The notes: a model not told the origin generated them from the letters alone. Positions 9,917-32,500 are shown, counted from the first letter of the stretch. The stretch: DNA of 64,000 nucleotides from GCF_054482595.1 NZ_CM137008.1; one strand, 5' to 3'. Numbers and translations are program-made.

Positions 9917-10292
9917 GGGTGACTCTGAATAAGGATTAAACCTCTATGATAGGTAACCTGAAGGCTGATGACCAGCAGGCCGTTTTTGAGGAAAAACCAC
10001 AATTTTAAAAGGGGATTGATAGATAAATGGTGTATTAGCAATGCATCTCTTGATAATGCACTTCTGGTTGGTAAATTTATTGAAATTATTATGTTAATAA
10101 AATGAGTGGTAATTTTCTTGTTAGCGCAGATAATTTTCCTGTTTTTAAAGCAGAGTTCCTCATTTAACGTCATTAATAAAAATGTTCTAAAACGCTGGAC
10201 AGACAGAAATTAATCAGGCTATTTTCAAAACAGCCACCATCGTGGCAGCGTCGCTCGGACGGTCCGGGCGCTAACGTTAATCTGAGGAAATT

Positions 10293-11531
10293 ATGGCTGA
10301 CACTCGCCCTGAACGTCGCTTTACGCGCATTGATCGTCTCCCGCCCTATGTTTTTAACATTACCGCTGAACTGAAAATGGCTGCGCGTCGGCGCGGCGAA
10401 GATATTATCGATTTCAGTATGGGTAACCCGGACGGTGCGACTCCGCCGCATATCGTCGAAAAATTATGTACTGTGGCCCAGCGCCCGGACACGCATGGTT
10501 ACTCCACTTCACGCGGTATTCCGCGGCTACGTCGCGCCATTTCCCGCTGGTATCAGGATCGCTACGACGTTGAAATCGACCCGGAATCAGAAGCCATCGT
10601 CACTATTGGTTCGAAAGAGGGCCTGGCGCATCTGATGCTGGCGACACTGGATCACGGTGACACAGTGCTGGTGCCGAATCCAAGTTACCCCATTCATATT
10701 TACGGCGCGGTGATTGCCGGGGCTCAGGTACGCTCAGTGCCGCTGGTGGAAGGTGTCGATTTCTTCAACGAACTGGAGCGCGCCATTCGTGAAAGTTATC
10801 CGAAACCGAAGATGATGATCCTCGGCTTCCCGTCGAACCCAACCGCGCAATGCGTGGAACTGGAGTTCTTCGAAAAGGTTGTGGCGCTGGCGAAACGCTA
10901 CGATGTGCTGGTGGTCCATGACCTGGCCTATGCCGATATCGTCTACGATGGCTGGAAAGCGCCGTCAATCATGCAGGTGCCGGGTGCACGCGATGTGGCG
11001 GTCGAGTTCTTTACGCTGTCGAAAAGCTACAACATGGCGGGCTGGCGTATCGGCTTTATGGTTGGCAACAAAACGCTGGTCAGCGCCCTGGCACGTATTA
11101 AAAGCTATCACGATTACGGCACCTTTACGCCGTTGCAGGTGGCGGCGATTGCGGCACTCGAGGGCGATCAACAGTGCGTGCGCGACATTGCCGAACAGTA
11201 CAAACGCCGCCGTGATGTATTGGTTAAAGGGCTGCATGAAGCGGGCTGGATGGTCGAAATGCCGAAGGCTTCGATGTATGTCTGGGCGAAAATACCGGAA
11301 CCGTATGCTGCCATGGGCTCGCTGGAATTTGCCAAGAAATTGCTTAACGAAGCGAAGGTCTGTGTCTCTCCGGGGATTGGCTTTGGCGACTATGGTGATA
11401 CGCATGTGCGCTTTGCACTGATTGAAAACCGCGACCGTATTCGTCAGGCGATTCGTGGGATTAAAGCGATGTTCCGTGCCGACGGTTTACTACCCGCCAG
11501 CAGCAAACATATTCACGAAAACGCGGAATAA
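10293..11531 (+). CDS. alaC: Glutamate-pyruvate aminotransferase (class I/II aminotransferase)
   Basis: 412 aa ORF with the PLP-lysine motif region ([12 protein letters not shown]); synteny. Confidence 0.85.
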
Positions 11532-12022: not shown

Positions 12023-12943
12023 TTAAATGTATAACGACGATTCTCCCACCGGGCGCGTTTTAAAGCGACGGTGGATCCAGAGGTACTGCTCCGGTGCGCG
12101 CATGATTTCTTTCTCGATAATCTTGTTCATATAGGCAGCGGCTTGATTTTCATCTGTCGGGTAGCCTTCCATCTCTGGGGTGATGAACAAACGATATCCG
12201 CTGTAATCCGCTTTTCTTACCATCGTTACGGTCAACATGGCTGCGCCAGAGAGACGGGAGAGAACATAGGTGCCATTGGTTGTGGCGACATTTTCTACCG
12301 CAAAGAACGGCGCGAAGGAGCTGCCTTTACGACCATAATCCTGATCGGGAGCAAACCATACCGCTTCACCTTTCTTCAGTGCACTGACAATGCCGCGCAG
12401 ATTATTTCTGCCGATCATCGCTTTGTTAGAGCGCATGCGACCACGGGTCTGCACCCATTCCATCAGCTGATTATTATGTGGACGATAGGTAGCCATCATT
12501 GGCTGACAAAGTCCCATCACGCGGCCGCCCAGTTCCAGCGACATAAAATGGACGCCGACAACCATTACGCCGCGATTTTGCATTTGTGCGCGTTTAAGGT
12601 TATCCAGCCCTTCAACATCAAACCATTTACGTACGCGACTGTCGGGCCAGAACCACGCCATGCCGGTTTCTACCAGCGCCATGCCGAGTGAACGAAAGTT
12701 TTCGGCAATCATCTTCTCGCGTTCTTCCGCAGAATGCTGCGGGAAGCAAAGTTCCAGGTTTTTACGGGCGATAGATTCACGCCGTTTCAGGAATGGTCGC
12801 GCCATTGCGCCAATACGCGTGCCGAGAAAGCAGAGAACAGGATAAGGAAGCTGTACCCAAAGCCAGAGTACACCAAGCCCAAACCATGTGAGCCAGTAGC
12901 GAGGATGTAGAAACTCGCGGGAAAATTTGCATTGTGGAAACAT
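12023..12943 (-). CDS. lpxP: Lipid A palmitoleoyltransferase (cold-induced late acyltransferase)
   Basis: ORF 12023..13009; recognised LpxP with likely start at MFPQCKFSREF (12943); HtrB/LpxL family. Confidence 0.85.
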   Translation of the reverse strand: MFPQCKFSREFLHPRYWLTWFGLGVLWLWVQLPYPVLCFLGTRIGAMARPFLKRRESIARKNLELCFPQHSAEEREKMIAENFRSLGMALVETGMAWFWPDSRVRKWFDVEGLDNLKRAQMQNRGVMVVGVHFMSLELGGRVMGLCQPMMATYRPHNNQLMEWVQTRGRMRSNKAMIGRNNLRGIVSALKKGEAVWFAPDQDYGRKGSSFAPFFAVENVATTNGTYVLSRLSGAAMLTVTMVRKADYSGYRLFITPEMEGYPTDENQAAAYMNKIIEKEIMRAPEQYLWIHRRFKTRPVGESSLYI

Positions 12944-13890: not shown

Positions 13891-14042
13891 AGAAAGTTAT
13901 CCTGAAAATGGTTCACTGAAAACCTACGACGTTATGGCTGTATTTACATATAATTAATCAGTATTTACATCGATATAATAAATGACATCTCTTTGTGGTA
14001 TATAAGAATAGTTCTCTGTGACAGGAAGCAGATTCCTACAAC

Positions 14043-14060
14043 TGTAAGATTAAAATACTT
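14043..14060. promoter_or_regulatory. Candidate EvgA box upstream of yfdX
   Basis: TTCCTACA-AC-TGTAAGAT, a near-perfect match to the EvgA inverted-repeat consensus TTCYTACA-N2-TGTARGAA, about 125 bp upstream of the yfdX start. Confidence 0.55.
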
Positions 14061-14185
14061 CTTGCGATAATAACTACAAGTGTAAGATAACCCTTTCAAA
14101 ATGACCGTTGCTCTCTGATTTCTCATTTCATGCTCACCCAATATGATGGCGGCGTTTTCTAAAACTGTTAAAGAATGAGGTAAGT

Positions 14186-14818
14186 ATGAAACGTTTAATT
14201 ATGGCTACGATGGTCACAGCTATTCTGGCATCTTCAACTGTATGGGCTGCTGATAATGCACCGGTAGCGGCACAACAGCAAACTCAGCAAGTTCAGCAAA
14301 CCCAGAAAACGGCAGCAGCAGAGCGTATCTCTGAACAAGGTTTATATGCGATGCGTGACGTGCAGGTAGCGCGCCTGGCTCTGTTTCATGGCGATCCGGA
14401 AAAGGCAAAAGAACTGACCAATGAAGCTTCCGCTTTGTTGTCAGATGACAGTACCGAATGGGCAAAGTTCGCTAAGCCAGGTAAAAAGACCAATCTCAAT
14501 GATGACCAATATATTGTCATTAATGCATCTGTCGGAATTTCTGAGAGTTATGTAGCGACACCCGAAAAAGAAGCCGCGATAAAAATTGCCAATGAAAAAA
14601 TGGCGAAAGGGGATAAAAAGGGCGCAATGGAAGAGCTTCGCCTGGCCGGTGTTGGTGTAATGGAAAACCAATATCTGATGCCGCTTAAACAGACTCGTAA
14701 TGCACTTGCTGATGCGCAGAAACTGCTTGATAAAAAGCAATACTACGAGGCAAACCTGGCGCTTAAAGGTGCGGAAGATGGAATCATCGTCGATAGCGAA
14801 GCACTGTTTGTGAACTAA
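14186..14818 (+). CDS. yfdX: Periplasmic protein YfdX
   Basis: 210 aa ORF with signal peptide; recognised YfdX; synteny. Confidence 0.8.
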
Positions 14819-15061
14819 TGCTGACTGGCAGTATATTGAGGTAAAGGATTTAACTCCCTCCAGACGACAATTTTTTATGACCACAATACGACAGGTTGTG
14901 GTCATAAAATTATTTGGCGCTCGCTGTTCTATAAACTCGCATTTTATATTCCTCAAAGTAAACCGCAATAATCCCGTGTCATCACAAATCATTTAATATG
15001 TTATATTTTATGGTACGCTTTAAAAAGCGTAATCATACCCTTACTTGTAAATCACCGGCGC

Positions 15062-15079
15062 TTCTTACAGTTGTAAGAA
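15062..15079. promoter_or_regulatory. Candidate EvgA box upstream of frc-oxc-yfdV-yfdE
   Basis: TTCTTACA-GT-TGTAAGAA, an 18/18 match to the EvgA inverted-repeat consensus, about 250 bp upstream of frc. Confidence 0.6.
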
Positions 15080-15329
15080 TAACATCACAAATGTCGCGAC
15101 TCTCTCTGATTACCACGAACCAATATTTATCATATTCTTCTTTTCGTCCTCACTACTTACCATGCAGAAAGGAATTGGAAGTAGCGATGAAATGATTTTC
15201 AGCACTTGATACAGGAATGTAAAAATATCGAGTGCAGCTACGACGATATTTTGCGGATTATTTATAGAGGCGTTATGCCTTAAATAAACGCTAAATTAAC
15301 ACATATTTAATTAACTAATAGGTATTGCT

Positions 15330-16580
15330 ATGTCAACTCCACTTCAAGGAATTAAAGTTCTCGATTTCACCGGTGTGCAATCTGGCCCATCTTGTACTCA
15401 AATGCTGGCCTGGTTTGGCGCTGACGTTATTAAAATTGAACGTCCCGGCGTTGGTGACGTAACGCGTCACCAGCTGCGAGATATTCCTGATATCGATGCG
15501 CTTTACTTCACCATGCTTAACAGTAACAAACGTTCTATTGAGTTAAATACCAAAACAGCGGAAGGCAAAGAGGTAATGGAAAAGCTGATCCGCGAAGCTG
15601 ATATCTTAGTCGAGAACTTTCATCCAGGGGCCATTGATCACATGGGTTTCACCTGGGAGCATATTCAAGAAATCAATCCACGTCTGATTTTTGGTTCGAT
15701 CAAAGGGTTTGATGAGTGTTCGCCTTATGTGAATGTAAAAGCCTATGAAAACGTTGCTCAGGCAGCGGGTGGCGCGGCATCCACTACGGGTTTTTGGGAC
15801 GGTCCGCCGCTGGTAAGCGCTGCAGCGTTGGGTGACAGCAACACCGGAATGCATTTACTGATCGGTTTACTTGCTGCTTTGCTGCATCGCGAAAAAACGG
15901 GGCGTGGGCAACGAGTCACCATGTCAATGCAGGATGCCGTATTGAACCTTTGCCGCGTGAAATTACGCGACCAGCAGCGTCTCGATAAATTGGGTTATCT
16001 GGAAGAATACCCGCAGTATCCGAATGGCACATTTGGTGATGCAGTTCCCCGCGGAGGTAATGCGGGTGGTGGCGGTCAGCCTGGCTGGATCCTGAAATGT
16101 AAAGGTTGGGAAACCGATCCTAACGCCTATATTTATTTCACTATTCAGGAGCAAAACTGGGAAAACACCTGCAAAGCCATCGGCAAACCAGATTGGATTA
16201 CCGATCCGGCATACAGTACAGCCCATGCCCGACAGCCACATATTTTCGATATTTTTGCTGAAATCGAAAAATACACTGTCACTATTGATAAACATGAAGC
16301 GGTGGCCTATTTGACTCAATTTGATATTCCTTGTGCACCGGTTTTAAGTATGAAAGAAATTTCACTTGATCCCTCTTTGCGCCAAAGTGGCAGTGTTGTC
16401 GAAGTGGAACAACCGTTGCGTGGAAAATATCTGACAGTTGGTTGTCCAATGAAATTCTCTGCCTTTACGCCAGATATTAAAGCTGCGCCGCTATTAGGTG
16501 AACATACCGCTGCTGTATTGCAGGAGCTGGGTTATAGCGACGATGAAATTGCTGCAATGAAGCAAAACCACGCCATCTGA
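15330..16580 (+). CDS. frc: Formyl-CoA:oxalate CoA-transferase
   Basis: 416 aa ORF, CoA-transferase family III; recognised Frc (YfdW). Confidence 0.9.
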
Positions 16581-16633
16581 TATTAACGGGGGCTTCTGGC
16601 TCCCAATTTATAAAAATTTCGAGGTTATTAATC

Positions 16634-18328
16634 ATGTCAGATCAACTTCAAATGACAGATGGTATGCATATCATCGTTGAAGCATTAAAACAGAATAATA
16701 TTGACACTATTTATGGTGTTGTAGGTATTCCTGTGACGGATATGGCGCGCCATGCCCAGGCGGAAGGCATTCGTTATATTGGTTTTCGTCATGAGCAGTC
16801 GGCAGGCTATGCCGCTGCGGCAAGCGGTTTTCTTACCCAAAAACCAGGGATCTGCCTGACAGTGTCTGCGCCAGGATTCCTCAATGGTTTGACCGCATTG
16901 GCCAACGCAACGGTAAATGGTTTTCCGATGATCATGATTAGCGGCTCCAGCGACCGCGCGATCGTCGACCTACAGCAAGGTGATTATGAAGAGCTGGACC
17001 AAATGAATGCGGCAAAACCGTATGCCAAAGCAGCATTTCGCGTTAATCAGCCGCAGGATCTTGGCATTGCATTGGCACGCGCTATCCGGGTCTCAGTATC
17101 GGGTCGCCCTGGCGGAGTTTATCTTGATTTGCCAGCAAATGTCCTGGCCGCGACGATGGAAAAAGACGAAGCGTTAACCACGATTGTAAAAGTTGAAAAT
17201 CCGTCGCCAGCATTATTGCCATGCCCGAAGTCAGTCACTAGCGCAATTTCGCTTTTAGCAAAAGCTGAACGGCCATTAATTATCCTTGGCAAAGGCGCGG
17301 CGTATTCACAAGCTGACGAACAGCTTCGTGAATTTATTGAAAGTGCCCAGATTCCATTCCTGCCAATGTCTATGGCGAAAGGGATCCTCGAAGATACGCA
17401 TCCACTTTCTGCGGCAGCTGCGCGTTCGTTTGCCCTGGCAAATGCTGACGTTGTCATGCTTGTTGGTGCACGACTGAATTGGTTACTGGCACACGGTAAA
17501 AAAGGATGGGCGGCAGATACACAGTTTATTCAACTGGATATTGAACCGCAGGAAATTGACAGCAACCGCCCCATTGCTGTGCCAGTCGTTGGCGATATTG
17601 CATCCAGTATGCAAGGTATGCTGGCAGAACTGAAACAAAACACATTTACGACTCCACTGGTATGGCGCGATATTTTAAATATCCACAAGCAGCAAAATGC
17701 ACAAAAAATGCATGAAAAATTGAGTACAGATACCCAACCATTAAATTACTTTAATGCATTGAGTGCTGTGCGCGATGTATTGCGTGAGAACCAGGATATT
17801 TATTTAGTTAATGAAGGGGCAAATACCCTGGATAATGCACGAAATATTATTGATATGTATAAACCACGTCGTCGTCTGGATTGTGGCACCTGGGGTGTCA
17901 TGGGCATCGGTATGGGCTATGCCATCGGTGCTAGCGTGACTTCTGGTTCTCCGGTTGTCGCCATTGAAGGTGATAGTGCTTTTGGTTTCAGTGGGATGGA
18001 AATTGAAACGATTTGTCGATATAACCTGCCGGTGACAATCGTTATTTTTAATAATGGCGGCATCTACAGAGGAGACGGTGTTGATCTCAGTGGCGCTGGT
18101 GCACCATCACCAACGGATCTGTTGCACCATGCAAGGTATGACAAATTAATGGATGCGTTTCGTGGCGTTGGCTATAACGTCACCACGACAGATGAACTTC
18201 GTCATGCTTTAACCACCGGTATTCAGTCGCGCAAACCGACCATTATTAACGTGGTCATCGACCCTGCAGCAGGAACTGAAAGTGGCCATATTACCAAACT
18301 GAACCCAAAACAAGTCGCTGGTAATTAA
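16634..18328 (+). CDS. oxc: Oxalyl-CoA decarboxylase (ThDP-dependent)
   Basis: 564 aa ORF with thiamine-diphosphate binding motif (GDSAFGFSGMEIETI...NNGG). Confidence 0.9.
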   Translation: MSDQLQMTDGMHIIVEALKQNNIDTIYGVVGIPVTDMARHAQAEGIRYIGFRHEQSAGYAAAASGFLTQKPGICLTVSAPGFLNGLTALANATVNGFPMIMISGSSDRAIVDLQQGDYEELDQMNAAKPYAKAAFRVNQPQDLGIALARAIRVSVSGRPGGVYLDLPANVLAATMEKDEALTTIVKVENPSPALLPCPKSVTSAISLLAKAERPLIILGKGAAYSQADEQLREFIESAQIPFLPMSMAKGILEDTHPLSAAAARSFALANADVVMLVGARLNWLLAHGKKGWAADTQFIQLDIEPQEIDSNRPIAVPVVGDIASSMQGMLAELKQNTFTTPLVWRDILNIHKQQNAQKMHEKLSTDTQPLNYFNALSAVRDVLRENQDIYLVNEGANTLDNARNIIDMYKPRRRLDCGTWGVMGIGMGYAIGASVTSGSPVVAIEGDSAFGFSGMEIETICRYNLPVTIVIFNNGGIYRGDGVDLSGAGAPSPTDLLHHARYDKLMDAFRGVGYNVTTTDELRHALTTGIQSRKPTIINVVIDPAAGTESGHITKLNPKQVAGN

Positions 18329-18397
18329 ATACTGACATCGTCTCCTCTTGCCAACTCATTATGCGATGGTGAGGGGACCCTTATCGGAAATACTATT

Positions 18398-19342
18398 ATG
18401 CTAACATTTTTTATTGGCGATTTATTGCCTATTATCGTAATCATGCTGTTGGGTTATTTTAGCGGCAGACGAGAAACATTTTCAGAAGATCAAGCTCGGG
18501 CATTTAATAAACTGGTATTAAACTACGCGCTTCCTGCGGCTCTATTTGTATCTATTACCCGGGCAAACAGGGAAATGATTTTTGCGGACACTCGTCTGAC
18601 CCTTGTATCACTTGTGGTTATTGTCGGATGTTTCTTTTTCTCCTGGTTCGGTTGCTACAAATTTTTTAAACGTACTCATGCAGAAGCAGCTGTATGTGCA
18701 TTAATTGCAGGTTCACCTACTATTGGATTCCTGGGATTTGCAGTTCTCGATCCTATTTATGGTGATTCCGTATCAACAGGTTTAGTGGTAGCAATTATTT
18801 CTATTATTGTTAACGCAATTACTATTCCTATTGGTCTGTATTTGCTGAATCCTTCCTCAGGAGCGGATGGTAAGAAGAATAGTAATCTGAGCGCATTAAT
18901 TTCTGCGGCAAAGGAGCCTGTAGTATGGGCACCTGTTCTGGCAACGATCCTGGTGCTGGTTGGGGTAAAAATTCCGGCAGCATGGGACCCAACCTTTAAT
19001 CTGATTGCGAAGGCTAACTCAGGGGTAGCGGTATTCGCTGCGGGGTTGACTCTGGCTGCACATAAATTCGAGTTCAGTGCCGAAATTGCTTATAACACCT
19101 TCCTGAAGCTGATTCTGATGCCACTGGCGCTGCTTCTTGTTGGTATGGCATGTCATCTGAACAGCGAACATCTGCAGATGATGGTACTGGCAGGCGCATT
19201 ACCGCCGGCATTCTCCGGAATCATTATTGCCAGCCGGTTTAATGTCTACACCCGCACTGGTACAGCGTCATTGGCTGTGAGCGTACTGGGTTTTGTCGTC
19301 ACGGCTCCCTTGTGGATTTATGTCAGTCGACTGGTTTCATAA
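18398..19342 (+). CDS. yfdV: Putative transporter (AEC family)
   Basis: 314 aa polytopic membrane ORF; synteny with the oxalate module. Confidence 0.8.
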
Positions 19343-19415
19343 TTAATCATGTTATTGATTTTACATAAATGCCGAAGTGTCTTTTCACCTTCGGCTTTTT
19401 TCAAGGCATAAGCAA

Positions 19416-20561
19416 ATGACAAATAATGAAAGCAAAGGGCCGTTTGAAGGCTTATTAGTTATCGATATGACACATGTCCTTAATGGACCTTTCGGAACTC
19501 AACTTCTTTGTAATATGGGCGCAAGGGTAATTAAAGTTGAGCCACCAGGTCATGGTGATGATACCCGCACATTTGGTCCCTATGTGGATGGACAGTCACT
19601 CTATTACAGTTTTATTAATCATGGTAAAGAGAGTGTGGTTCTTGATTTAAAGAATGATCACGATAAAAGTATATTTATAAATATGCTTAAACAAGCTGAT
19701 GTATTAGCTGAGAATTTTCGCCCAGGTACAATGGAAAAACTGGGGTTTTCATGGGAAAGGTTACAAGAAATCAACCCGCGCCTCATATATGCTTCATCGT
19801 CAGGTTTCGGACATACCGGTCCGCTAAAAGATGCTCCTGCCTACGATACCATCATTCAGGCAATGAGCGGGATAATGATGGAAACAGGGTACCCTGATGC
19901 TCCGCCAGTGCGTGTTGGTACCTCTCTTGCGGATCTATGCGGCGGTGTTTATTTATTCAGCGGAATAGTGAGTGCACTTTATGGCCGCGAAAAGAGCCAA
20001 AGAGGGGCGCATGTCGATATAGCGATGTTTGATGCCACGCTGAGTTTTCTGGAGCATGGTCTGATGGCATATATTGCGACAGGGAAGTCACCACAACGCC
20101 TGGGAAATCGCCATCCCTACATGGCACCTTTTGATGTTTTCGATACTCAGGATAAGCCGATTACGATTTGTTGTGGTAATGACAAGCTTTTTTCTGCGTT
20201 ATGCCAGGCACTGGAGCTTACGGAACTGGTTAATGATCCCAGATTTAGCAGCAATATTTTACGCGTACAAAACCAGGCTATTCTTAAACAATATATTGAG
20301 CGGACGTTAAAAACGCAGGCAGCTGAAGTTTGGTTAGCCAAAATACATGAAGTCGGTGTGCCCGTCGCGCCGTTATTAAGTGTGGCTGAGGCCATTAATT
20401 TGCCACAAACTCAGGCGAGAAATATGTTGATTGAAGCCGGGGGAATAATGATGCCGGGTAATCCGATAAAAATCAGTGGCTGCGCGGACCCGCATGTTAT
20501 GCCGGGAGCGGCAACGCTCGACCAGCATGGGGAGCAAATTCGCCAGGAGTTCTCATCATAA
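19416..20561 (+). CDS. yfdE: Acetyl-CoA:oxalate CoA-transferase (CoA-transferase family III)
   Basis: ORF 19377..20561; paralogous to Frc; likely start at MTNNESKGPFEGL (19416). Confidence 0.8.
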   Translation: MTNNESKGPFEGLLVIDMTHVLNGPFGTQLLCNMGARVIKVEPPGHGDDTRTFGPYVDGQSLYYSFINHGKESVVLDLKNDHDKSIFINMLKQADVLAENFRPGTMEKLGFSWERLQEINPRLIYASSSGFGHTGPLKDAPAYDTIIQAMSGIMMETGYPDAPPVRVGTSLADLCGGVYLFSGIVSALYGREKSQRGAHVDIAMFDATLSFLEHGLMAYIATGKSPQRLGNRHPYMAPFDVFDTQDKPITICCGNDKLFSALCQALELTELVNDPRFSSNILRVQNQAILKQYIERTLKTQAAEVWLAKIHEVGVPVAPLLSVAEAINLPQTQARNMLIEAGGIMMPGNPIKISGCADPHVMPGAATLDQHGEQIRQEFSS

Positions 20562-20583: not shown

Positions 20584-20610
20584 GCTCCCACATTTGAACA
20601 TTGTGGGAGC
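20584..20610. terminator. Hairpin between convergent yfdE and evgS
   Basis: gctcccaca-tttgaaca-ttgtgggagc inverted repeat in the 55 bp convergent gap. Confidence 0.5.
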
Positions 20611-20616
20611 CGCTAT

Positions 20617-23600
20617 TTAGTCATTTTGCTGACAGAAAACAGCAATCTCCTGGTCCAGCTCTGCAATGTGTTCTTTTACAGAGTTCAGCAACTGAAGAAT
20701 TTCAGGCTTACTGTCATCTGAAACAGGTGTTATTTCTAACTGATGGCTAATATTAATCAACTTTTGCAAATTCAGGATGTTAGCCGCACCGTGGATGCGA
20801 TGAATACATTGATGGAAAGTTCTGTTATCGCCAGCTTCTAGTGCATGAAACGCAGCGGGTAGATCTTTATGCGTTTCATGCTGGAAAGTCATGAGAATCT
20901 CCTGCATCAGTTGTAGATCGTTCGCCGTATTATTTTTCAGGGCTTCGATATCAAGGTGGCGATACTGAGGTGCAATATGCGCAACCTGGTGTAACTGACT
21001 TAAATGTGTTTTCAGTACATCCAGGGTCAACGGTTTGAACAAACATAAGTTCATGCCGCAATTTAACCCTTTTTCACGTTCGTTAGCCTGTGCGTTGGCT
21101 GTAAGCCCCCAGATGGGTAAGGAAGAATTTTGCTCACGGAGTTTGCGAGTCAACTCAAAACCATCCATATTCGGCATATTAACGTCAGTAATAAGCAGAT
21201 CATAATGTTGCATACTGACTTTGTGTAGCGCTTGCACACCATCAGTGGCTTCATCAACATCATATCCTAATAGATTTAGCTGGCGTTTGAGTAATAGCCT
21301 GTTGGTCGGATGATCATCCGCGATTAATATGCTCAACTTTTCAGGTAGTGTGATGGGTTGTTCTGCTTTTGCCTCGACAGTCGCCACTTGTTGGATAATT
21401 TCTACCGGGATTGTGATCGTAAATGTTGTTCCTATGCCTGGATGACTTTCTAATGACAAATCACCCTGCATGTTTTTAATTAATTCTTTGCAGATCATTA
21501 AGCCTAAACCAGAACCTGTTTGCTGACGACCTGCACTTGTTTGGCTATAGCGTTTAAACAGTTGTTGTTGTTCTTCCTGCGATAATCCACTTCCAGAATC
21601 CATAATCGTCATTTTGATTACAGCGTGGTTGTCATCAATGTGAACCAGGGAGGTCGTAATTTTTACTGCCCCCTCGGTGGTAAATTTGAGAGCATTACTC
21701 AGTAAATTTGATAAGACCTGCTTAAACGCCTGAGGGTCGATCTTAACCAGGTAATGTTCAGGAAACGTACTGCTGCAACTTAATGCGATCGATTTGCTTG
21801 CAGCAATCGCACCGAAAGAGTGACAAGTGTTCTGGACTAAAGTAGGGATATCGACCCATTGTGGTTGAAGTTGATAGTTACCCGATTCAATTTTGTCGAC
21901 ATCAAGGATTTCACCAATTAAGCCGAGGAGTGATTGTCCGGTGGCGTAGGCAAGTGAAATCGCCTCCACCCGTTGCTCCTTGCTAAGACCAGAACCCGAC
22001 AGAAGTTCCAGGAAGCCCATAATGGAGCTTATTGGTGTTCTTATTTCGTGACTCATTGTTGCCAGAAACTGACTTTTTGCGACAGTTGCATTGATCGCTT
22101 TATTTCTCTCTACTTCGAGTGCATGAATTAAATCACGCGTCTCGGTAATATCTTGCCAACCACAAATATAAACAGCATGATCGCTGGCTGGCAGATTGCA
22201 TAATGTATGCCAGTGATTAATGCATCTTTTCTCGATGCCATTATCAATTTCAAATACCTGTGTGTATATTGTTCGATTTTCTTTCGTTTCTGCTGTGACT
22301 TCATGCGCATTAGAAAAAACATCTTTAAAGGGTGATTCACTGTTTTCTAATGGCAACATTGCATTTTTGTAGTAATCAGCAGTGAAATAATGTTCAAATG
22401 CACTATTGTGACTAATGACATTACCTTGCCAGTTTACAACATAAGTTGGATTCGGTAAGGAGTCCGAGAGCGCTTTCCGGAATGATATTTGGTTTTCTAA
22501 ATCACCCTGAATGACTTTACGACGACGAACTGAGCGTAACAGGTAGAATCCCCATAAAAGGCTACTGCCAACTAATAAAACGGATAATGTCGTAACAATA
22601 TAAAATTGCTCGCTATAGAGGTCCCATGTGTCAATGGTCACATTGGGCATTTTAATCCATTTTTCGGTCAGGCGCAGAACTTCGCTTGGGGGGATTGCAT
22701 TCAGTGCTTTATTAATAATATCCTTAAGTTCCGGTTCTCCGCGAGGAAAAGCGAACGAAAGCGATGCATTCGGAACGCCGGGAATAAGAAAATGATACAG
22801 TTCATTAGGATAGTAATGGTCGATCATGTAACGCGAATTTAACTGTGTCGCGACCAGAGCATCAAGTTCGCCTTCCTTGACCTTGTGAAATGCAGCGCTG
22901 GCGTTATCGACTTTTATCCACTCTACCTCCGGATACATCTCTTTTAATTGCGAATGAAGCTCATAATAATATGGAATGGCAACTTTCATTCCTTTTTTTA
23001 ATGTTTGTTCACTGTCAGGCGCTTTTTGCATGACAAAAACGTAAGGCGTTGTTATGAAGGCTTCAGCAAATAAAACATTATTTTCTCTATCTTCACTATA
23101 AATAGCACCGGGTAATATATCCCATCCGCCGGGATTCAGCTGTGTTCCAGCATGGATATTGTGTGAAACGGTGATCGGAGAAAAATTTAAACCTGTTTGC
23201 AAAGTAATAATATTAAGAATATCCCCCATAACGCCCCGAACCGAGCCATTTTCATCCGTCATAGAATAGGGAGGGGAGTAAGGATTTTCCAGCACCTTTA
23301 AATCGGGATGCTGCTTAATCCATTGTTTTTCATGTTCAGTGAGTTCTAATGGTTTGTTCAGAAAGGCCAGGTTTCCTGTATCAAGCCAATTTTGTGATAC
23401 TTCATAGCGAACTTCATTTGTCAAAGCATCAACAAATCGATTGAGTACTTCATTAAGAACGACAGATTCTTTTCTGGTCAAGAAAAAATTATATTGACGC
23501 GGTGAGTTATAATATTTCACTACATTTAAGGAGTGAGTGAAATAGCGGGAAATCATACTGCTGGTAATGATGTTACTACCAATAAAGTAATCATTCTGTC

Positions 23601-24210
23601 CGGCTGAGACGGATGCTAATGCCTGATATAAATTTGTAAAAGAGATAATTGTTGCTTTTGGAAATGATTGATGAATTACCTCGTCAGGGGGATAATTTGC
23701 TACTCGAGCAATATTTACTGGTTTTGATGAGGTAAGCGGTCGCATTGAATCGTGAAGGGTGGTGACCAGCGCCGGAAAGGTAATTATCAGTGGTTTGGTT
23801 GCAGCAATGTCATCATTAAGAGGCGGCGAAGCAACTAAATGTGATAACACTATATCGACTTCACCTTCTTCCAGCGCGTCCATTGCTTTTTGATGATCGG
23901 CGTATTCCCGGAGTGTTAATTTGATATTTAACGCTCTTTTTAAAAGATTTAAATAATCAGCATTAATACCACGCACCCGTTGCTGCGAATCGGTATGCAA
24001 CAACGTAGCCGTTTGGGACTTGTGTACTGCAATCACAAGATTTTTTTTGCTCGCTAACCAACGTAATTCCTTGTTGCTCAGACGTAGTGGATCAAGTGTG
24101 ACACGGTTGTTACTACTGATGCCACGATATTCGATGTAATCTTCGTCTGCGAAACTTATGGTCGACCAAAGACCACAACAGAGAAGAAAAATATAGGGTA
24201 AAAACTTCAT
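20617..24210 (-). CDS. evgS: Hybrid sensor histidine kinase EvgS (periplasmic domains, HisKA/HATPase, receiver, HPt)
   Basis: 1197 aa ORF; H-box (SHEIRTPI), receiver (LIADDHPTNR) and C-terminal HPt region; recognised EvgS. Confidence 0.9.
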   Translation of the reverse strand: MKFLPYIFLLCCGLWSTISFADEDYIEYRGISSNNRVTLDPLRLSNKELRWLASKKNLVIAVHKSQTATLLHTDSQQRVRGINADYLNLLKRALNIKLTLREYADHQKAMDALEEGEVDIVLSHLVASPPLNDDIAATKPLIITFPALVTTLHDSMRPLTSSKPVNIARVANYPPDEVIHQSFPKATIISFTNLYQALASVSAGQNDYFIGSNIITSSMISRYFTHSLNVVKYYNSPRQYNFFLTRKESVVLNEVLNRFVDALTNEVRYEVSQNWLDTGNLAFLNKPLELTEHEKQWIKQHPDLKVLENPYSPPYSMTDENGSVRGVMGDILNIITLQTGLNFSPITVSHNIHAGTQLNPGGWDILPGAIYSEDRENNVLFAEAFITTPYVFVMQKAPDSEQTLKKGMKVAIPYYYELHSQLKEMYPEVEWIKVDNASAAFHKVKEGELDALVATQLNSRYMIDHYYPNELYHFLIPGVPNASLSFAFPRGEPELKDIINKALNAIPPSEVLRLTEKWIKMPNVTIDTWDLYSEQFYIVTTLSVLLVGSSLLWGFYLLRSVRRRKVIQGDLENQISFRKALSDSLPNPTYVVNWQGNVISHNSAFEHYFTADYYKNAMLPLENSESPFKDVFSNAHEVTAETKENRTIYTQVFEIDNGIEKRCINHWHTLCNLPASDHAVYICGWQDITETRDLIHALEVERNKAINATVAKSQFLATMSHEIRTPISSIMGFLELLSGSGLSKEQRVEAISLAYATGQSLLGLIGEILDVDKIESGNYQLQPQWVDIPTLVQNTCHSFGAIAASKSIALSCSSTFPEHYLVKIDPQAFKQVLSNLLSNALKFTTEGAVKITTSLVHIDDNHAVIKMTIMDSGSGLSQEEQQQLFKRYSQTSAGRQQTGSGLGLMICKELIKNMQGDLSLESHPGIGTTFTITIPVEIIQQVATVEAKAEQPITLPEKLSILIADDHPTNRLLLKRQLNLLGYDVDEATDGVQALHKVSMQHYDLLITDVNMPNMDGFELTRKLREQNSSLPIWGLTANAQANEREKGLNCGMNLCLFKPLTLDVLKTHLSQLHQVAHIAPQYRHLDIEALKNNTANDLQLMQEILMTFQHETHKDLPAAFHALEAGDNRTFHQCIHRIHGAANILNLQKLINISHQLEITPVSDDSKPEILQLLNSVKEHIAELDQEIAVFCQQND

Positions 24211-24214
24211 GTGG

Positions 24215-24829
24215 TTAGCCGATTTTGTTACGTTGTGCGAATGTGTAAAGATCCATCAGTGATTTACATTCTAATTTTTCCATCAGGCGACTTTTATAAG
24301 TGCTGACAGTTTTGTTGCTGATGAACATTTTTTCAGCAATGTCATTATTATCCTTGCCATCAAGAATATAGCGCATGACACTAATTTCTTGTTTCGATAA
24401 GGAGTCGAGTTTTTGCTGGTCGGACGTTAAACTTCCAACAAACCGGTTGAGAGAGAAGGGGAAATAGCAGTAGCCATTTTTTGCAGCTTCAATAGCCGCA
24501 ATGATATTGTTCATGCCTTCTTTTTTACTCACGAAACCATTAGCGCCAGCATCAGCACAATGTTTCCCGTAAAAATGGTCATTTTTAGCGGAGACGATAA
24601 TAATAATTCCGCTATATTGGCGCTTCCTCAGCGTTTCTAACACCTGGATACCGTTAACTCCGGGGATATCGACATCAATGATGACGATATCAGGCTTAAG
24701 TGTTTCCACCCGCTGAACGGCACTTCCGCCTTCAGTCAACTCTGCTAAGATTTCAATATCGTTTTTGATCAATAAATTACGAATTGCTGCGATAGCAAGA
24801 GGATGGTCATCAATAATTATTGCGTTCAT
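24215..24829 (-). CDS. evgA: Response regulator EvgA (LuxR/FixJ family)
   Basis: 204 aa ORF; receiver domain plus C-terminal LuxR-type HTH; directly upstream of evgS. Confidence 0.9.
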   Translation of the reverse strand: MNAIIIDDHPLAIAAIRNLLIKNDIEILAELTEGGSAVQRVETLKPDIVIIDVDIPGVNGIQVLETLRKRQYSGIIIIVSAKNDHFYGKHCADAGANGFVSKKEGMNNIIAAIEAAKNGYCYFPFSLNRFVGSLTSDQQKLDSLSKQEISVMRYILDGKDNNDIAEKMFISNKTVSTYKSRLMEKLECKSLMDLYTFAQRNKIG

Positions 24830-25053: not shown

Positions 25054-25071
25054 ATCCTACAGGCGTAAGAA
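25054..25071. promoter_or_regulatory. Candidate EvgA box in the evgA-emrK divergent region
   Basis: ATCCTACA-GG-CGTAAGAA, 16/18 match to TTCYTACA-N2-TGTARGAA, between divergent evgA and emrK. Confidence 0.5.
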
Positions 25072-25244: not shown

Positions 25245-26408
25245 GTGGAACAGATTAATTCAAATAAAAAACATTCTAACAGAAGAAAATACTTTTCTTT
25301 ATTGGCGGTAGTTTTATTTATTGCGTTTTCAGGTGCCTATGCCTATTGGTCAATGGAATTAGAAGACATGATTAGTACAGATGACGCCTATGTCACGGGG
25401 AATGCAGATCCAATTTCTGCACAAGTCTCAGGTAGTGTCACTGTCGTTAATCATAAAGATACGAACTACGTTCGACAAGGTGACATTTTAGTTTCACTGG
25501 ATAAAACTGATGCCACTATCGCACTCAATAAAGCTAAAAATAATCTGGCAAATATTGTTCGGCAAACGAATAAACTGTACTTACAGGATAAACAATACAG
25601 TGCCGAAGTCGCTTCAGCACGTATTCAGTATCAACAATCTTTAGAAGATTATAACCGTCGTGTGCCTTTAGCGAAGCAGGGGGTTATTTCAAAAGAAACG
25701 CTGGAGCATACCAAAGATACGTTAATAAGTAGCAAAGCGGCATTGAATGCCGCTATCCAGGCTTATAAAGCGAATAAAGCTTTAGTAATGAACACACCAT
25801 TAAACCGTCAGCCACAAGTCGTGGAAGCGGCGGATGCAACCAAAGAAGCCTGGTTGGCGCTTAAACGTACGGATATTAAGAGTCCGGTTACCGGCTATAT
25901 TGCCCAGAGAAGTGTTCAGGTCGGCGAAACAGTGAGCCCCGGACAATCGTTAATGGCTGTCGTACCGGCACGTCAAATGTGGGTTAATGCCAACTTTAAA
26001 GAAACACAACTCACGGATGTACGGATTGGTCAATCGGTCAATATTATCAGCGATCTTTATGGTGAAAATGTTGTGTTTCATGGTCGGGTGACAGGGATCA
26101 ATATGGGAACCGGCAATGCGTTCTCCTTATTACCTGCACAAAATGCGACAGGGAACTGGATCAAAATCGTTCAGCGTGTACCGGTTGAAGTTTCTCTTGA
26201 TCCAAAAGAACTCATGGAACACCCCTTGCGCATTGGTTTATCGATGACTGCAACTATTGATACGAAGGACGAAGACATTGCTGAGATGCCTGATCTGGCT
26301 TCAACCGTGACCTCCATGCCTGCTTATACCAGTAAGGCTTTAGTTATCGATACCAGTCCGATAGAAAAAGAAATTAGCAACATTATTTCGCATAATGGAC
26401 AACTTTAA
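25245..26408 (+). CDS. emrK: Multidrug efflux membrane fusion protein (EmrA paralogue)
   Basis: 387 aa ORF, HlyD-family; exact start uncertain (several in-frame Met); overlaps emrY start (TAATG). Confidence 0.85.
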   Translation: MEQINSNKKHSNRRKYFSLLAVVLFIAFSGAYAYWSMELEDMISTDDAYVTGNADPISAQVSGSVTVVNHKDTNYVRQGDILVSLDKTDATIALNKAKNNLANIVRQTNKLYLQDKQYSAEVASARIQYQQSLEDYNRRVPLAKQGVISKETLEHTKDTLISSKAALNAAIQAYKANKALVMNTPLNRQPQVVEAADATKEAWLALKRTDIKSPVTGYIAQRSVQVGETVSPGQSLMAVVPARQMWVNANFKETQLTDVRIGQSVNIISDLYGENVVFHGRVTGINMGTGNAFSLLPAQNATGNWIKIVQRVPVEVSLDPKELMEHPLRIGLSMTATIDTKDEDIAEMPDLASTVTSMPAYTSKALVIDTSPIEKEISNIISHNGQL

Positions 26409-27946
26409 TGGCAATCACTAAATCAACTCCGGCACCATTAACCGGTGGGACGTTATGGTGCGTCACTATTGCATTGTCATTAGCGACGTTTATGCAAATG
26501 TTGGATTCCACTATTTCTAACGTCGCAATACCGACAATATCTGGCTTTCTGGGAGCGTCAACAGACGAAGGCACCTGGGTTATCACCTCGTTTGGCGTAG
26601 CAAATGCCATTGCGATCCCTGTTACCGGCAGGCTGGCACAAAGAATAGGCGAATTAAGGTTATTTTTACTTTCAGTCACTTTTTTTTCGCTGTCTTCCTT
26701 AATGTGTAGTTTATCGACCAATCTTGATGTTCTGATATTTTTTAGAGTCGTTCAGGGGTTAATGGCGGGGCCGTTAATTCCACTGTCACAGAGTTTATTA
26801 TTAAGGAATTATCCACCAGAAAAAAGGACATTTGCTCTGGCATTATGGTCAATGACCGTGATTATCGCTCCGATATGTGGGCCGATATTGGGCGGCTATA
26901 TTTGTGATAACTTTAGCTGGGGTTGGATATTTTTAATCAATGTCCCTATGGGGATTATCGTCCTGACATTATGCTTAACCTTACTTAAAGGAAGAGAAAC
27001 TGAGACTTCACCGGTCAAAATGAATCTACCAGGACTGACCCTGTTAGTGCTCGGTGTTGGTGGCTTGCAAATTATGCTTGATAAAGGGCGCGATCTGGAT
27101 TGGTTCAACTCGAGTACAATAATAATATTAACAGTAGTATCAGTTATTTCTCTGATCTCTTTAGTTATTTGGGAGTCGACCTCAGAGAACCCGATTCTTG
27201 ATCTCAGTTTGTTTAAGTCCCGTAATTTCACCATTGGTATAGTGAGTATCACATGCGCGTATTTATTTTACTCTGGAGCGATCGTCCTTATGCCGCAGTT
27301 ACTCCAGGAAACGATGGGGTATAATGCGATATGGGCCGGACTTGCTTATGCGCCCATCGGCATCATGCCACTATTAATTTCACCTTTGATAGGACGTTAT
27401 GGCAACAAAATAGACATGCGGTTGTTAGTGACATTTAGTTTTTTGATGTATGCGGTTTGCTATTACTGGCGTTCTGTGACATTTATGCCAACGATTGATT
27501 TTACAGGCATCATTTTGCCACAGTTTTTCCAGGGATTCGCCGTTGCCTGTTTCTTTTTACCCTTAACAACGATTTCGTTTTCAGGGTTGCCAGATAATAA
27601 ATTTGCCAATGCCTCGAGTATGAGTAATTTTTTTCGTACCTTGTCAGGATCAGTTGGTACGTCGTTGACAATGACGCTGTGGGGACGACGCGAATCGTTA
27701 CACCATAGTCAGTTGACAGCAACCATCGATCAATTTAACCCCGTGTTTAATTCATCGTCACAAATTATGGATAAATACTATGGTTCGCTTTCAGGAGTTC
27801 TTAATGAAATTAATAATGAAATAACCCAGCAGTCACTTTCTATTTCTGCAAATGAGATTTTCCGTATGGCGGCTATTGCTTTTATCTTACTTACGGTTTT
27901 GGTGTGGTTTGCGAAACCGCCGTTTACAGCGAAAGGCGTTGGGTGA
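26408..27946 (+). CDS. emrY: MFS multidrug efflux pump (EmrB paralogue)
   Basis: 512 aa ORF with the multi-helix layout expected of a 14-TMS MFS exporter; recognised EmrY. Confidence 0.9.
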   Translation: MAITKSTPAPLTGGTLWCVTIALSLATFMQMLDSTISNVAIPTISGFLGASTDEGTWVITSFGVANAIAIPVTGRLAQRIGELRLFLLSVTFFSLSSLMCSLSTNLDVLIFFRVVQGLMAGPLIPLSQSLLLRNYPPEKRTFALALWSMTVIIAPICGPILGGYICDNFSWGWIFLINVPMGIIVLTLCLTLLKGRETETSPVKMNLPGLTLLVLGVGGLQIMLDKGRDLDWFNSSTIIILTVVSVISLISLVIWESTSENPILDLSLFKSRNFTIGIVSITCAYLFYSGAIVLMPQLLQETMGYNAIWAGLAYAPIGIMPLLISPLIGRYGNKIDMRLLVTFSFLMYAVCYYWRSVTFMPTIDFTGIILPQFFQGFAVACFFLPLTTISFSGLPDNKFANASSMSNFFRTLSGSVGTSLTMTLWGRRESLHHSQLTATIDQFNPVFNSSSQIMDKYYGSLSGVLNEINNEITQQSLSISANEIFRMAAIAFILLTVLVWFAKPPFTAKGVG

Positions 27947-28053
27947 TGGTAAAAGCAGGGGGTTATAGCGGGTAAGACCGGGGATCTTAAGTCTGCGCCA
28001 TCGGCAGCATCGCTCACCCAGGGAAAGGATTGCGATGCTGCGTTGAAACGTTA

Positions 28054-29382
28054 TTAACGGCCTTTTGCCAGATATTGATTCATCTCTTCTTCCGGCACCA
28101 TTCCACCTCCCGTCGCCCACACCAGATGAGTGGTATTACGCAGTTGTTCTGCGCTGAAACCGTGCATCTGTTGGTAACTTACTGATGCACACACGCGCTG
28201 AGGTCCGGTCATACCCGCCAGTGCCGAAGGTTCAAGACGAATACCTTCTTCCTGCGCCAGCCAGCCAAGCATGTCATACATGGTTTGATCGCTAAGGGTA
28301 TAGAAGCCATCCAGCAGACGCTCCATTGCCCGCCCGACAAAGCCTGATGCGCGACCAACTGCAAGGCCATCCGCTGCGGTAAGGTTGTCGATACCAATAT
28401 CCTGAACAGAAATCTGATCGTGTAATCCTGTATGGATGCCTAACAGCATACAAGGGGAGTGCGTTGGTTCGGCAAAAAAGCAGTGAACATGATCGCCAAA
28501 CGCCAGTTTAAGTCCGAATGCGACGCCACCAGGACCACCGCCAACACCACACGGCAGATAGACAAACAGAGGGTTATCAGCATCGACGATACGGCCTTGC
28601 TGGGCAAATTGCGCTTTAAGACGCTGGCCAGCGACGGAATACCCAAGGAACAACGTGCGGGAATTTTCGTCATCAATAAAGAAACAGTTCGGGTCAGACT
28701 GCGCTGCTTTACGTCCTTCCTCGACGGCAACACCATAATCTTGCTCATATTCCACGACCGTAACGCCATGGCTGCGCAGTTTCGCTTTTTTCCATGCCCG
28801 GGCATCAGCAGACATATGCACTGTCACCTTAAAGCCAATGCGGGCGCTCATAATGCCGATTGATAACCCCAGATTTCCGGTTGAGCCCACAGCAATGCTG
28901 TATTGGCTAAAGAACTGTTTAAACTCCGGAGAAAGCAGTTTGCTGTAGTCATCATCAAGCGTCAGCAACCCCGCTTCCAGAGCCAGTTTTTCTGCGTGTG
29001 CCAGAACTTCATAAATCCCGCCGCGTGCTTTTATGGAGCCGGAAATGGGCAAATGGCTATCTTTTTTCAGTAACAGTTGCCCGCTGATCGGTTGTTGATA
29101 TTCCTTTTCCAGCCGTTTTTGCATAGCCGGAATGGCAACCAGTTCTGATTCAATAATCCCCCCAGTAGCAGCAGTTTCAGGAAATGCTTTTGCCAGATAG
29201 GGTGCAAAACGGGATAAGCGCGCATGGGCGTCCTGAACATCCTGTTCGGTCAGGCCAACATAAGGTAAACCTTCAGCCAATGAGGTCGTGCCAGGATTAA
29301 ACCAGGTGGTTTCTTTAAGAGCAACCAGATCCTTTACCAACGGATACTGGGCGATGAGCGAGTTCATTTTAGCGTTTTCCAT
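28054..29382 (-). CDS. dsdA: D-serine ammonia-lyase (PLP-dependent)
   Basis: 442 aa ORF with PLP-lysine motif (SGSIKARGG); recognised DsdA. Confidence 0.9.
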
Positions 29383-29399
29383 AGTACGTCTCTTTGCGC

Positions 29400-29630
29400 T
29401 TAGATGATAAATGACAGCAGGAATGTGCCCGCCAGAGCGACGACTGAAGCGATAAATGTCGCTGTCGTATAGTATTTAAATGTTTCATTGAGCGTAGCGC
29501 CGCAATATTGCTTCACCAGCCAGAAAAGCGAGTCCGTAACGATCGTGCAGCCAATTGCGCCTGAACCGATAGCAATCGCAATAATTTCCGGGCTGATGTC
29601 GGGATACAGCGGCAGCACAATGATCCATAT
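29400..29630 (-). pseudogene. dsdX: 3' remnant of dsdX (D-serine permease, GntP family)
   Basis: Only about 72 C-terminal codons (…[27 protein letters not shown]) remain; in-frame stop immediately upstream of 29630; the rest of dsdX and all of dsdC are absent. Confidence 0.7.
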
Positions 29631-29848
29631 TTATATTTTCTTCTCCAGGTTGGCGATGCCAGTTGGCATGTTTTTCTTACTTGCCTATATGGTTACTCGT
29701 TGGCGAGAACAGAGGCGGAATTGGGGACAATTGGCCGGGAATTATTGTTATTTTTTATTGTATTGCCGTGTCAGGTGATAGGGCGTTGGATCTCGCCAGT
29801 GACGTCTGTTTCTGCTACAGTGCCCGTTTTACGACAAACGGCTTGGGT

Positions 29849-30844: not shown

Positions 30845-30851
30845 TATTATG

Positions 30852-32285: not shown

Positions 32286-32319
32286 TTTAATCATCCTGGT
32301 TAAGCAAATTTGGTGAATT

Positions 32320-32331
32320 GTTAACGTTAAC
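32320..32331. promoter_or_regulatory. Candidate CscR operator (perfect palindrome GTTAACGTTAAC), copy 1
   Basis: 12 bp perfect palindrome in the cscA/cscK divergent promoter; identical copy 64 bp downstream. Confidence 0.5.
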
Positions 32332-32364
32332 TTTTATAAAAATAAAGTCCCTTACTTTCATAAA

Positions 32365-32380
32365 TGCGATGAATATCACA
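32365..32380. promoter_or_regulatory. CRP-like site in the csc divergent promoter
   Basis: TGCGA-tgaata-TCACA resembles the TGTGA-N6-TCACA consensus with one mismatch. Confidence 0.35.
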
Positions 32381-32383
32381 AAT

Positions 32384-32395
32384 GTTAACGTTAAC
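32384..32395. promoter_or_regulatory. Candidate CscR operator (perfect palindrome GTTAACGTTAAC), copy 2
   Basis: Identical 12 bp palindrome; central CG as in many LacI-family operators. Confidence 0.5.
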
Positions 32396-32500
32396 TATGA
32401 CATTTTGTGATCGAATATGCATGTTTTAGTAAATCCATGACGATTTTGCGAAAAAGAGGTTTATCACTATGCGTAAGTCAGATGAATTTAAGGGAAAAAA

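Follow-up and report, generated by a model that had tools for sequence, protein, structure and literature searches.

The window analysed here is a stretch of 64,000 nucleotides from NZ_CM137008.1 (GCF_054482595.1), and all coordinates are positions in that whole stretch. From 14,186 to 20,561 it carries five genes on the + strand, yfdX, frc (yfdW), oxc (yfdU), yfdV and yfdE, beside which evgS and evgA converge from the - strand, with the emrK-emrY efflux genes beyond them (Table 1). The place of the five genes, their common direction and their adjacency to evgSA, as given in a first-pass annotation of this DNA, agree with the open reading frame (ORF) coordinates and with the RefSeq annotation. 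The cluster is already known, being an annotated, structurally and biochemically characterised E. coli locus. Indeed, an 8-kb query spanning it has matches in 5,424 of 5,426 complete E. coli genomes, 5,389 of which align with at least 80% of the query at one single place; its DNA is 100% identical to that of strain XH990 and about 98% identical to that of most E. coli. Within this species the cluster is fixed, and the window holds a strain variant of a known locus. Our interpretation, to which we assign a probability of roughly 85%, is that this locus is the known EvgA-controlled module of oxalate-dependent acid tolerance in E. coli.

All five proteins score above the NCBIfam equivalog cut-offs by a wide margin and match the expected Pfam families, and near-identical E. 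coli proteins have been solved for Frc (1PT5), Oxc (2Q27), YfdE (4HL6) and YfdX (6UXT). Frc matches TIGR03253 (784.1 bits, cut-off 504.2) and NF003809 (798 bits, cut-off 442) over its full length, and PDB entries 1PT5/1PQY at E about 1e-290; catalytic Asp169 is present, as is a GGGGQ loop at residues 246-250 (GGGG at 246-249). YfdE (NF008511, 883.9 bits, cut-off 522; PDB 4HL6, E 4e-260) combines catalytic Asp173 (SLAD173) with a GNRH loop at 230-233 that fits the pattern GNxH. It is the glycine-rich GGGGQ loop, as in Frc, that tells formyl-CoA:oxalate CoA-transferases (FCOCT) from acetyl-CoA:oxalate CoA-transferases (ACOCT) (PMC3720670). Oxc has the N, M and C domains of thiamine diphosphate (ThDP) enzymes (PF02776, PF00205 and PF02775) and the ThDP/Mg-binding motif GDSAFG...NN at 446-474, and scores 1045.8 bits with TIGR03254 (cut-off 739.4), 1068 bits with NF006721 (cut-off 557) and 1262 bits against PDB 2Q27. 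The Oxalobacter formigenes enzymes are matched at E 2e-168 (Frc to FRC, 1P5H) and E 2e-204 (Oxc to OXC, 2C31). YfdX matches NF007645 (375 bits, cut-off 256) and PF10938 (151 bits), and its residues 22-210 align with 6UXT (E 3e-113), whose crystallised chain is without the signal-like N-terminus. YfdV matches NF007384 (714 bits, cut-off 404) and, across its full length, PF03547 (Mem_trans, 270 bits); its solved relatives are all distant, PIN8 for example at E 9e-10. Together, equivalog scores, Pfam families, motifs and structural matches bear out the earlier calls of two family III CoA-transferases, a ThDP-dependent decarboxylase and a transporter.

Two details of the first description need correction. 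The genes were said to overlap or to be separated by short spacers; no overlap exists, and the gaps measure 511 bp (yfdX-frc), 53 bp, 69 bp and 73 bp. The GTG at 19377, first read as the start of yfdE, is probably 39 nt too early. The true start is most likely the ATG at 19416, since the alignments of the NF008511 profile and of PDB 4HL6 both begin only at residue 14 of the longer ORF, RefSeq annotates this ATG, and a terminator-like hairpin lies inside the 39-nt extension. Small ORFs examined in the 511-bp gap found no support, and a 183-aa antisense ORF (14441-14992) with no family match was treated as spurious.

Table 1. Features of the oxalate cluster and its surroundings in the 64,000-nt window
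Feature	Position	Strand	Description
lpxP-to-tRNA-Arg(CCT) segment	12944-35175		22.2 kb, contains the cluster
EvgA-box-like repeat upstream of yfdX	14033-14050		TTCCTACAACTGTAAGAT, 1 mismatch
Weaker EvgA-box-like copy upstream of yfdX	14071-14088		3 mismatches
yfdX	14186-14818	+	210 aa; periplasmic YfdX-family protein; Sec signal peptide ending VWA/AD
Terminator-like hairpin after yfdX	14873-14909	+	15-bp stem, then T-rich tail UUAUUUGG
Perfect EvgA box	15062-15079		TTCTTACAGTTGTAAGAA, 0 mismatches, 251 bp upstream of the frc ATG
frc (yfdW)	15330-16580	+	416 aa; formyl-CoA:oxalate CoA-transferase, family III, FCOCT subgroup
oxc (yfdU)	16634-18328	+	564 aa; ThDP-dependent oxalyl-CoA decarboxylase
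yfdV	18398-19342	+	314 aa; AEC-family (PIN-like) membrane transporter
Terminator-like hairpin, yfdV-yfdE gap	19371-19401	+	GCCGAAGUG...CACCUUCGGC + U6; canonical-looking intrinsic terminator
yfdE	19416-20561	+	acetyl-CoA:oxalate CoA-transferase (YfdE/UctC, ACOCT subgroup); function from PMC3720670
Hairpin in 55-bp convergent yfdE-evgS gap	20584-20610		9-10 bp stem
evgS	20617-24210	-	acid-sensing two-component system; converges on cluster
evgA	24215-24829	-	acid-sensing two-component system; converges on cluster
EvgA-box-like repeat, evgA/emrK divergent promoter region	25054-25071		2 mismatches
emrK-emrY	25245-27946	+	efflux genes (emrK = 25245-26408); end of low-GC block

Control by EvgA can be read in the promoter regions. 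The EvgA box is said to be an 18-bp inverted repeat, TTCYTACA-N2-TGTARGAA, a consensus that reportedly goes back to Masuda and Church in 2003. A scan of the window returned four matches, with 0.59 expected by chance, and all four lie in promoter regions of EvgA targets, that is, in the three regions where they were expected. Published work places EvgA-bound inverted repeats before yfdX and before yfdW (yfdWUVE) (PMC3720670), and yfdX, frc, yfdV and oxc are strongly induced by acid (PMC10746267).

The hairpin predicted after yfdX is strong (-22.1 kcal/mol, z = -4.41; none of 200 shuffles folds as well). The perfect EvgA box in the 511-bp gap marks a promoter region of its own for frc, and because the gap holds both this box and the hairpin, the cluster looks like two EvgA-driven units, yfdX alone and frc-oxc-yfdV(-yfdE). 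The 73-nt yfdV-yfdE intergenic region also folds better than all of its 200 shuffles (-15.4 kcal/mol, z = -2.8), and four of five related cassettes have a stable hairpin at the corresponding place behind yfdV, although the sequences are unrelated. This conservation suggests that frc-oxc-yfdV is a core unit with read-through into an accessory CoA-transferase, and the predicted hairpin before yfdE is a possible attenuator. The hairpin in the yfdE-evgS gap (z = -2.3 on the + strand and -3.3 on the - strand) is probably a bidirectional terminator. Two points speak against dividing the cluster in this way: the terminator-like hairpins are predictions only, and published work treats yfdXWUVE as one co-induced operon. 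A scan for promoter consensus sequences gave 29 matches, compared to 29.6 in shuffles, with a hint only for a yfdX -35/-10 pair at 14120-14147. An Rfam scan of 11-29 kb returned one sub-threshold chance match inside evgS and no known RNA element. The frc leader, about 250 nt long, does not align with those of relatives and folds only mildly better than shuffles (z = -2.2), so that it makes no case for a riboswitch or a leader peptide.

As to function, the cluster is EvgA-activated and necessary for the acid tolerance that oxalate induces, which is moderate and is not growth, and the activities of the enzymes have been demonstrated along with, genetically, the need for yfdW and yfdU (PMC3720670). 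The statement of the first-pass annotation that E. coli does not grow on oxalate, the module serving acid tolerance instead, rests on this literature. In the mechanism that we propose, which follows the published and best-supported account, EvgS would phosphorylate EvgA under mild acid, and EvgA would bind the inverted repeats before yfdX and, separately, those before frc. Oxalate would enter the cell, with YfdV as the putative carrier. YfdE would prime the cycle by turning acetyl-CoA and oxalate into oxalyl-CoA and acetate, a reaction shown in the literature; Oxc, whose activity is likewise established, would convert oxalyl-CoA to formyl-CoA and CO2, and in doing so may consume a cytoplasmic proton to physiological effect; and Frc would pass CoA from formyl-CoA onto a new oxalate and release formate, also a published reaction. 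Formate would then leave the cell by some export route. The net outcome would be proton consumption, analogous to that of the amino-acid decarboxylase systems of acid resistance, and not growth on oxalate. YfdX, a periplasmic protein, would come from an EvgA-dependent unit of its own. We infer three parts of this scheme: that proton consumption is what protects, that YfdV is the carrier, and what becomes of formate.

To place the cluster among its relatives, we surveyed 80 Oxc-encoding loci among the matches listed, which come from many phyla and all lie outside Escherichia. In 61 of these 80 listed loci frc adjoins oxc; yfdV follows oxc in 27, all of them on Enterobacterales, Orbales or Bacteroidales-type contigs, and yfdE is present in 18. 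Formate dehydrogenase genes are neighbours of frc/oxc in 11 listed loci, and AMP-forming ligase genes also in 11. In Providencia rettgeri, FDH-N-type formate dehydrogenase genes stand immediately upstream of the cassette. The place that yfdE takes in E. coli is filled in Providencia and Moellerella by a second frc paralogue, and P. alcalifaciens has both. Neither yfdX nor evgS accompanied the cassette in any of the 80 listed loci, a rule that was overturned by Enterobacter cancerogenus (see below). On a metagenomic, Enterobacteriaceae-like contig (L091, 14608-21536; Oxc 80% identical), the genes after frc-oxc-yfdV-yfdE encode a YdeP-like molybdopterin oxidoreductase (759 aa; 1033 bits with TIGR01701) and a GadX/YdeO/HilD-like AraC regulator, and emrKY-like genes come next; frc has an EvgA-like box 209 bp upstream. 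The ydeP and ydeO genes of E. coli, which EvgA targets, lie at a distant locus. As far as gene order can tell, the adjacency on this contig supports the published idea that YdeP disposes of formate.

Two further contigs deserve mention. In Orbus hercynius, an alaC homologue (L009, 1969-3225), with a product 84% identical to E. coli AlaC, is separated by about 5 kb from the cassette, here frc-oxc-yfdV-yfdE; the alaC-frc distance in E. coli is 3.8 kb. This identity seems high for Orbales, and may reflect coincidence or co-transfer. A contig binned with an Oxalobacter formigenes metagenome-assembled genome (L016) carries frc-oxc-yfdV in the Bacteroidales-type arrangement, with identities of 64, 67 and 57% that also resemble those of Bacteroidales, and is possibly mis-binned.

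A rival reading is that the module yields energy. In such a scheme, oxalate would be catabolised as in O. formigenes, electrogenic oxalate/formate exchange together with decarboxylation would generate a proton-motive force, and acid tolerance would be a side effect. The orthology of the two enzymes to FRC and OXC, the co-encoded, dedicated transporter, the FDH-N-type genes of Providencia with the formate dehydrogenase neighbours elsewhere, and the YdeP-like enzyme of L091 would all suit it. E. coli, however, neither consumes oxalate nor tolerates it well (PMC3720670), its cluster is wired to an acid sensor through the EvgA boxes and is induced by acid (PMC10746267), and no OxlT-type gene of the MFS family is adjacent. 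We regard energy conservation as an unlikely primary role and retain acid tolerance.

The origin of the cluster was first addressed through composition, with 63 core genes within 100 kb around the locus as reference. The GC content of the five genes is 0.45-0.47 and their GC content at third codon positions (GC3) 0.40-0.43 (pooled, 0.41), compared to 0.523±0.029 and 0.562±0.044 for the core genes; all five fall under the lowest GC3 of any core gene (0.434). Pooled, they stand at a codon-usage distance B of 0.331 from the core, whereas five core genes drawn at random give 0.154±0.036 and only 7 of 2000 such draws came as high; the shift is towards A/T-ending codons. Base composition and codon usage thus both differ clearly from those of local core genes, so that the refuting test which the first-pass annotation set for itself does not refute its reading. 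The low-GC stretch extends beyond the five genes, from about 13.0 to 28.0 kb: evgS, evgA, emrY and emrK have a lower GC still (0.40-0.42), the GC3 of evgSA (0.38-0.42) is in the same low range, and the five genes are closer in codon use to their evgSA/emrY neighbours (B = 0.188) than to the core. The block had been described as AT-richer than the core genes on its flanks, which holds on the left and fails on the right, where evgSA/emrKY are lower in GC. Apart from this stretch, a 343-aa hypothetical gene (37699-38730, - strand) in the mlaA-fadL interval has a GC of 0.343 and a GC3 of 0.28, and is a separate small AT-rich insertion.

The cluster lies within a 22.2-kb segment between lpxP, which ends at 12943, and the tRNA-Arg(CCT) gene argW (35176-35250). 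This segment holds yfdY, ypdI, the five genes, evgSA, emrKY, dsdA, a truncated dsdX, the csc genes and a DUF4942 remnant. Its argW-adjacent part, 28053-35250, comprises dsdA, the truncated dsdX, the csc locus for sucrose utilisation (a LacI-type regulator, cscA, a kinase and an MFS transporter) and the DUF4942 remnant (50 aa, 34813-34965), which adjoins argW. Because the GC of that part is near-normal, the 22-kb interval seems a mosaic to which several acquisitions contributed.

Synteny was compared with two contigs of Enterobacteriaceae other than Escherichia (L088 and L086), whose backbone DNA is about 76-82% identical to the window. Both have the order fadL-mlaA-yfdC-tRNA-Arg(CCT)-lpxP-(ypdK)-alaC-ypdAB-glk. 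The tRNA gene and lpxP are about 0.3 kb apart in L088; in L086 (Pseudenterobacter timonensis), unrelated genes take up 8.4 kb between them. The 22.2-kb segment is absent from the equivalent site of both, and its position at a tRNA gene is that of a genomic island. By itself, and this tempers the argument, an empty site fits loss elsewhere as well as gain in the Escherichia lineage. LpxP homologues of Salmonella and Kosakonia (75% identity) were of no use for the empty-site comparison, as they lie near the suf operon and are non-syntenic. A contig taken at first for another species (L087, LpxP 88%) turned out to be E. coli: its DNA is 97.8% identical to the window and its neighbouring proteins 98-100% identical, with LpxP at 88% protein identity (10001-11002, window 12023-12943). 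E. coli thus seems to have two divergent alleles of lpxP, the gene at the island edge, which suggests recombination at the island border.

Relatives of the block occur at other sites. In a database of 5.8 billion proteins, Oxc forms an E. coli cluster (at least 90% identity), the next proteins being metagenomic ones at 80% with nothing between; below 80% come E. cancerogenus (77-78%), Providencia (73-74%), Moellerella (71%) and Orbus (70%). E. cancerogenus (L090, 6779-21695) has the entire yfdX-to-emrY block in the same order at another chromosomal site, flanked by hdeB/hdeD and slp, and the GC of the block is below that of its flanks (0.60). In E. coli, hdeB/hdeD and slp belong to a separate acid fitness island. 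Identities to the window proteins are 60% for yfdX, 90% for frc, 78% for oxc, 82% for yfdV, 73% for yfdE, 57% for evgS, 81% for evgA, 62% for emrK and 78% for emrY. In this species, only half-sites of the EvgA box were seen upstream of yfdX and emrK, and the yfdX-frc gap is 115 bp, not 511.

Moreover, complete or partial cassettes are borne by plasmids of Klebsiella variicola, Cetobacterium and Acetobacter, that of K. variicola having 71.7% DNA identity over the full 5.2 kb. Three PLSDB records of 4.8-4.9 Mb (H13, H15 and H16) are evident E. coli chromosomes and give no evidence of a plasmid-borne cluster. A third-party-annotation record labelled E. coli (GCA_025819735.1; L092, 52-13048) has a divergent frc-oxc-yfdV-yfdE with Oxc 76% identical, adjoining IS3- and IS66-family transposases. 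It was not used as E. coli evidence: megablast searches against 72,556 plasmids and 5,426 complete E. coli genomes yielded no match to it, and contamination, mis-binning or a mobile copy of great rarity may account for it.

With the empty site, the E. cancerogenus block at another site and the plasmid cassettes added to composition, the old horizontal acquisition proposed in the first-pass annotation is well supported on genomic evidence. The low-GC yfdX-emrY block would have been acquired, inside the 22-kb segment, between lpxP and tRNA-argW, and would since have become fixed in the species. No integrase or insertion sequence (IS) is annotated in 13-28 kb, where border repeats were not searched for; this lack of mobility genes fits an old, decayed acquisition. 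It would also suit vertical inheritance, with the low GC arising from local mutational or expression effects and the cluster lost in other Enterobacteriaceae, as would the fixation of the cluster in E. coli and the 86-87% identity of Frc to its Providencia and Moellerella counterparts, which is plausible for vertical orthologues. Such a history has, however, to accommodate a GC3 of 0.41 beneath each of the 63 core genes, a block adjoining tRNA-argW where two relatives have little or other DNA, the different site in E. cancerogenus, and related cassettes on plasmids. Block proteins are 57-90% identical to those of E. cancerogenus, compared to 79-96% for backbone proteins and two other Enterobacteriaceae, an indirect comparison that also counts against it. 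Finally, frc is described as horizontally spread, with a single acquisition by Escherichia (PMC12188714). We hold vertical descent to be quite improbable, and favour acquisition.

That Oxc and Frc serve mainly in formyl-CoA or 2-hydroxyacyl-CoA chemistry, or in the disposal of endogenous oxalyl-CoA, with oxalate incidental, is the least probable alternative of all: 2-hydroxyacyl-CoA lyases/synthases are indeed homologues of Oxc (E about 1e-120 to 1e-131 for PDB 8VZ* and 6XN8) and the source of cytoplasmic oxalate is 'not always apparent' (PMC3720670), but Oxc scores 1046-1068 bits with the equivalog models against 232 for the lyase model, oxalate-specific enzymology and an oxalate-induced phenotype are published (PMC3720670), and co-occurrence with two oxalate-specific CoA-transferases is conserved in the listed loci.

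Within the acid-tolerance module, YfdV was still listed as uncharacterized in 2024 (PMC10971958). Genomic association suggests that it is probably the oxalate/formate carrier of the pathway, because its gene stands directly after oxc in the 27 listed loci noted above, from Enterobacterales as well as Bacteroidales, and is kept in plasmid cassettes, and because it is never found together with TctA/C or MFS transporters beside frc/oxc in the 80 listed loci. Among listed loci that lack yfdV, TctA/TctC genes lie near the cassette in six and MFS transporters in five. Weighing against this assignment, YhjX, a homologue of OxlT, has been suggested as an alternative antiporter (PMC3720670). It is conceivable that frc-oxc cassettes have in YfdV their cognate oxalate(/formate) carrier and, at the same time, that the 14-kb yfdX-to-emrKY block is a transferable 'acid-response island'; we see the chances for and against this joint proposal as evenly balanced. 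If it is true, Enterobacterales, Bacteroidales and Fusobacteria would use in YfdV a functional analogue of the MFS antiporter OxlT that is built on the AEC/PIN fold. Relatives of the island would still join the cassette physically with genes for a GadX/YdeO-type regulator and for a YdeP-type, formate-dehydrogenase-like enzyme, gene types that are scattered in E. coli.

The window is E. coli chromosomal DNA, identical to strain XH990 (NZ_CP019359.1) base for base up to position 26372; at 26373, in a homopolymer of emrK, it has one A more. With this base emrK is intact in the window (387 aa), whereas the XH990 RefSeq record gives it as 'frameshifted' for the 1-base difference. The frameshift is probably an assembly error in that record, or else a real phase-type difference.

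In the operon model, these observations separate what look like two EvgA-driven units and place a possible attenuator ahead of yfdE; they extend the compositional island well beyond the five genes of 14186-20561, to the whole lpxP-argW interval. They also make YfdV, on genomic grounds that are reasonably strong, a candidate worth testing for the oxalate/formate transporter that the pathway still lacks. Its role bears on the share of intestinal oxalate degradation that falls to E. coli and to gut Bacteroidales, which have the same frc-oxc-AEC cassette.

Compared to known systems, the locus shows no difference of substance from the E. coli K-12 cluster with its evgSA and emrKY: gene order, spacing and positions of the EvgA boxes are the same and the proteins near-identical. 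With the OxlT, FRC and OXC system of O. formigenes it shares the two enzymes, their chemistry and the logic of decarboxylation coupled to exchange. It differs in that E. coli co-encodes the AEC-family YfdV where O. formigenes uses the MFS protein OxlT, adds the priming enzyme YfdE and control by an acid-sensing two-component system, and does not grow on oxalate (PMC3720670). The Gad, Adi and Cad systems follow the same principle, in which an anion or zwitterion is imported, a decarboxylation consumes a proton and the product is exported, and share with the module a regulatory hierarchy under EvgA (PMC3720670). Unlike them, the oxalate module decarboxylates a CoA thioester through a CoA-transfer cycle, its protection is moderate and oxalate-induced, and its transporter is putative. 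Finally, the cassettes of Providencia, Moellerella, Orbus, E. cancerogenus and Bacteroidales, and those on K. variicola and Cetobacterium plasmids, keep the same frc-oxc-yfdV order, often with a second CoA-transferase after yfdV. Among these relatives only E. cancerogenus also carries yfdX, evgSA and emrKY, and the neighbours differ, with FDH-N genes in Providencia and ydeP-like and AraC-type genes in L091.

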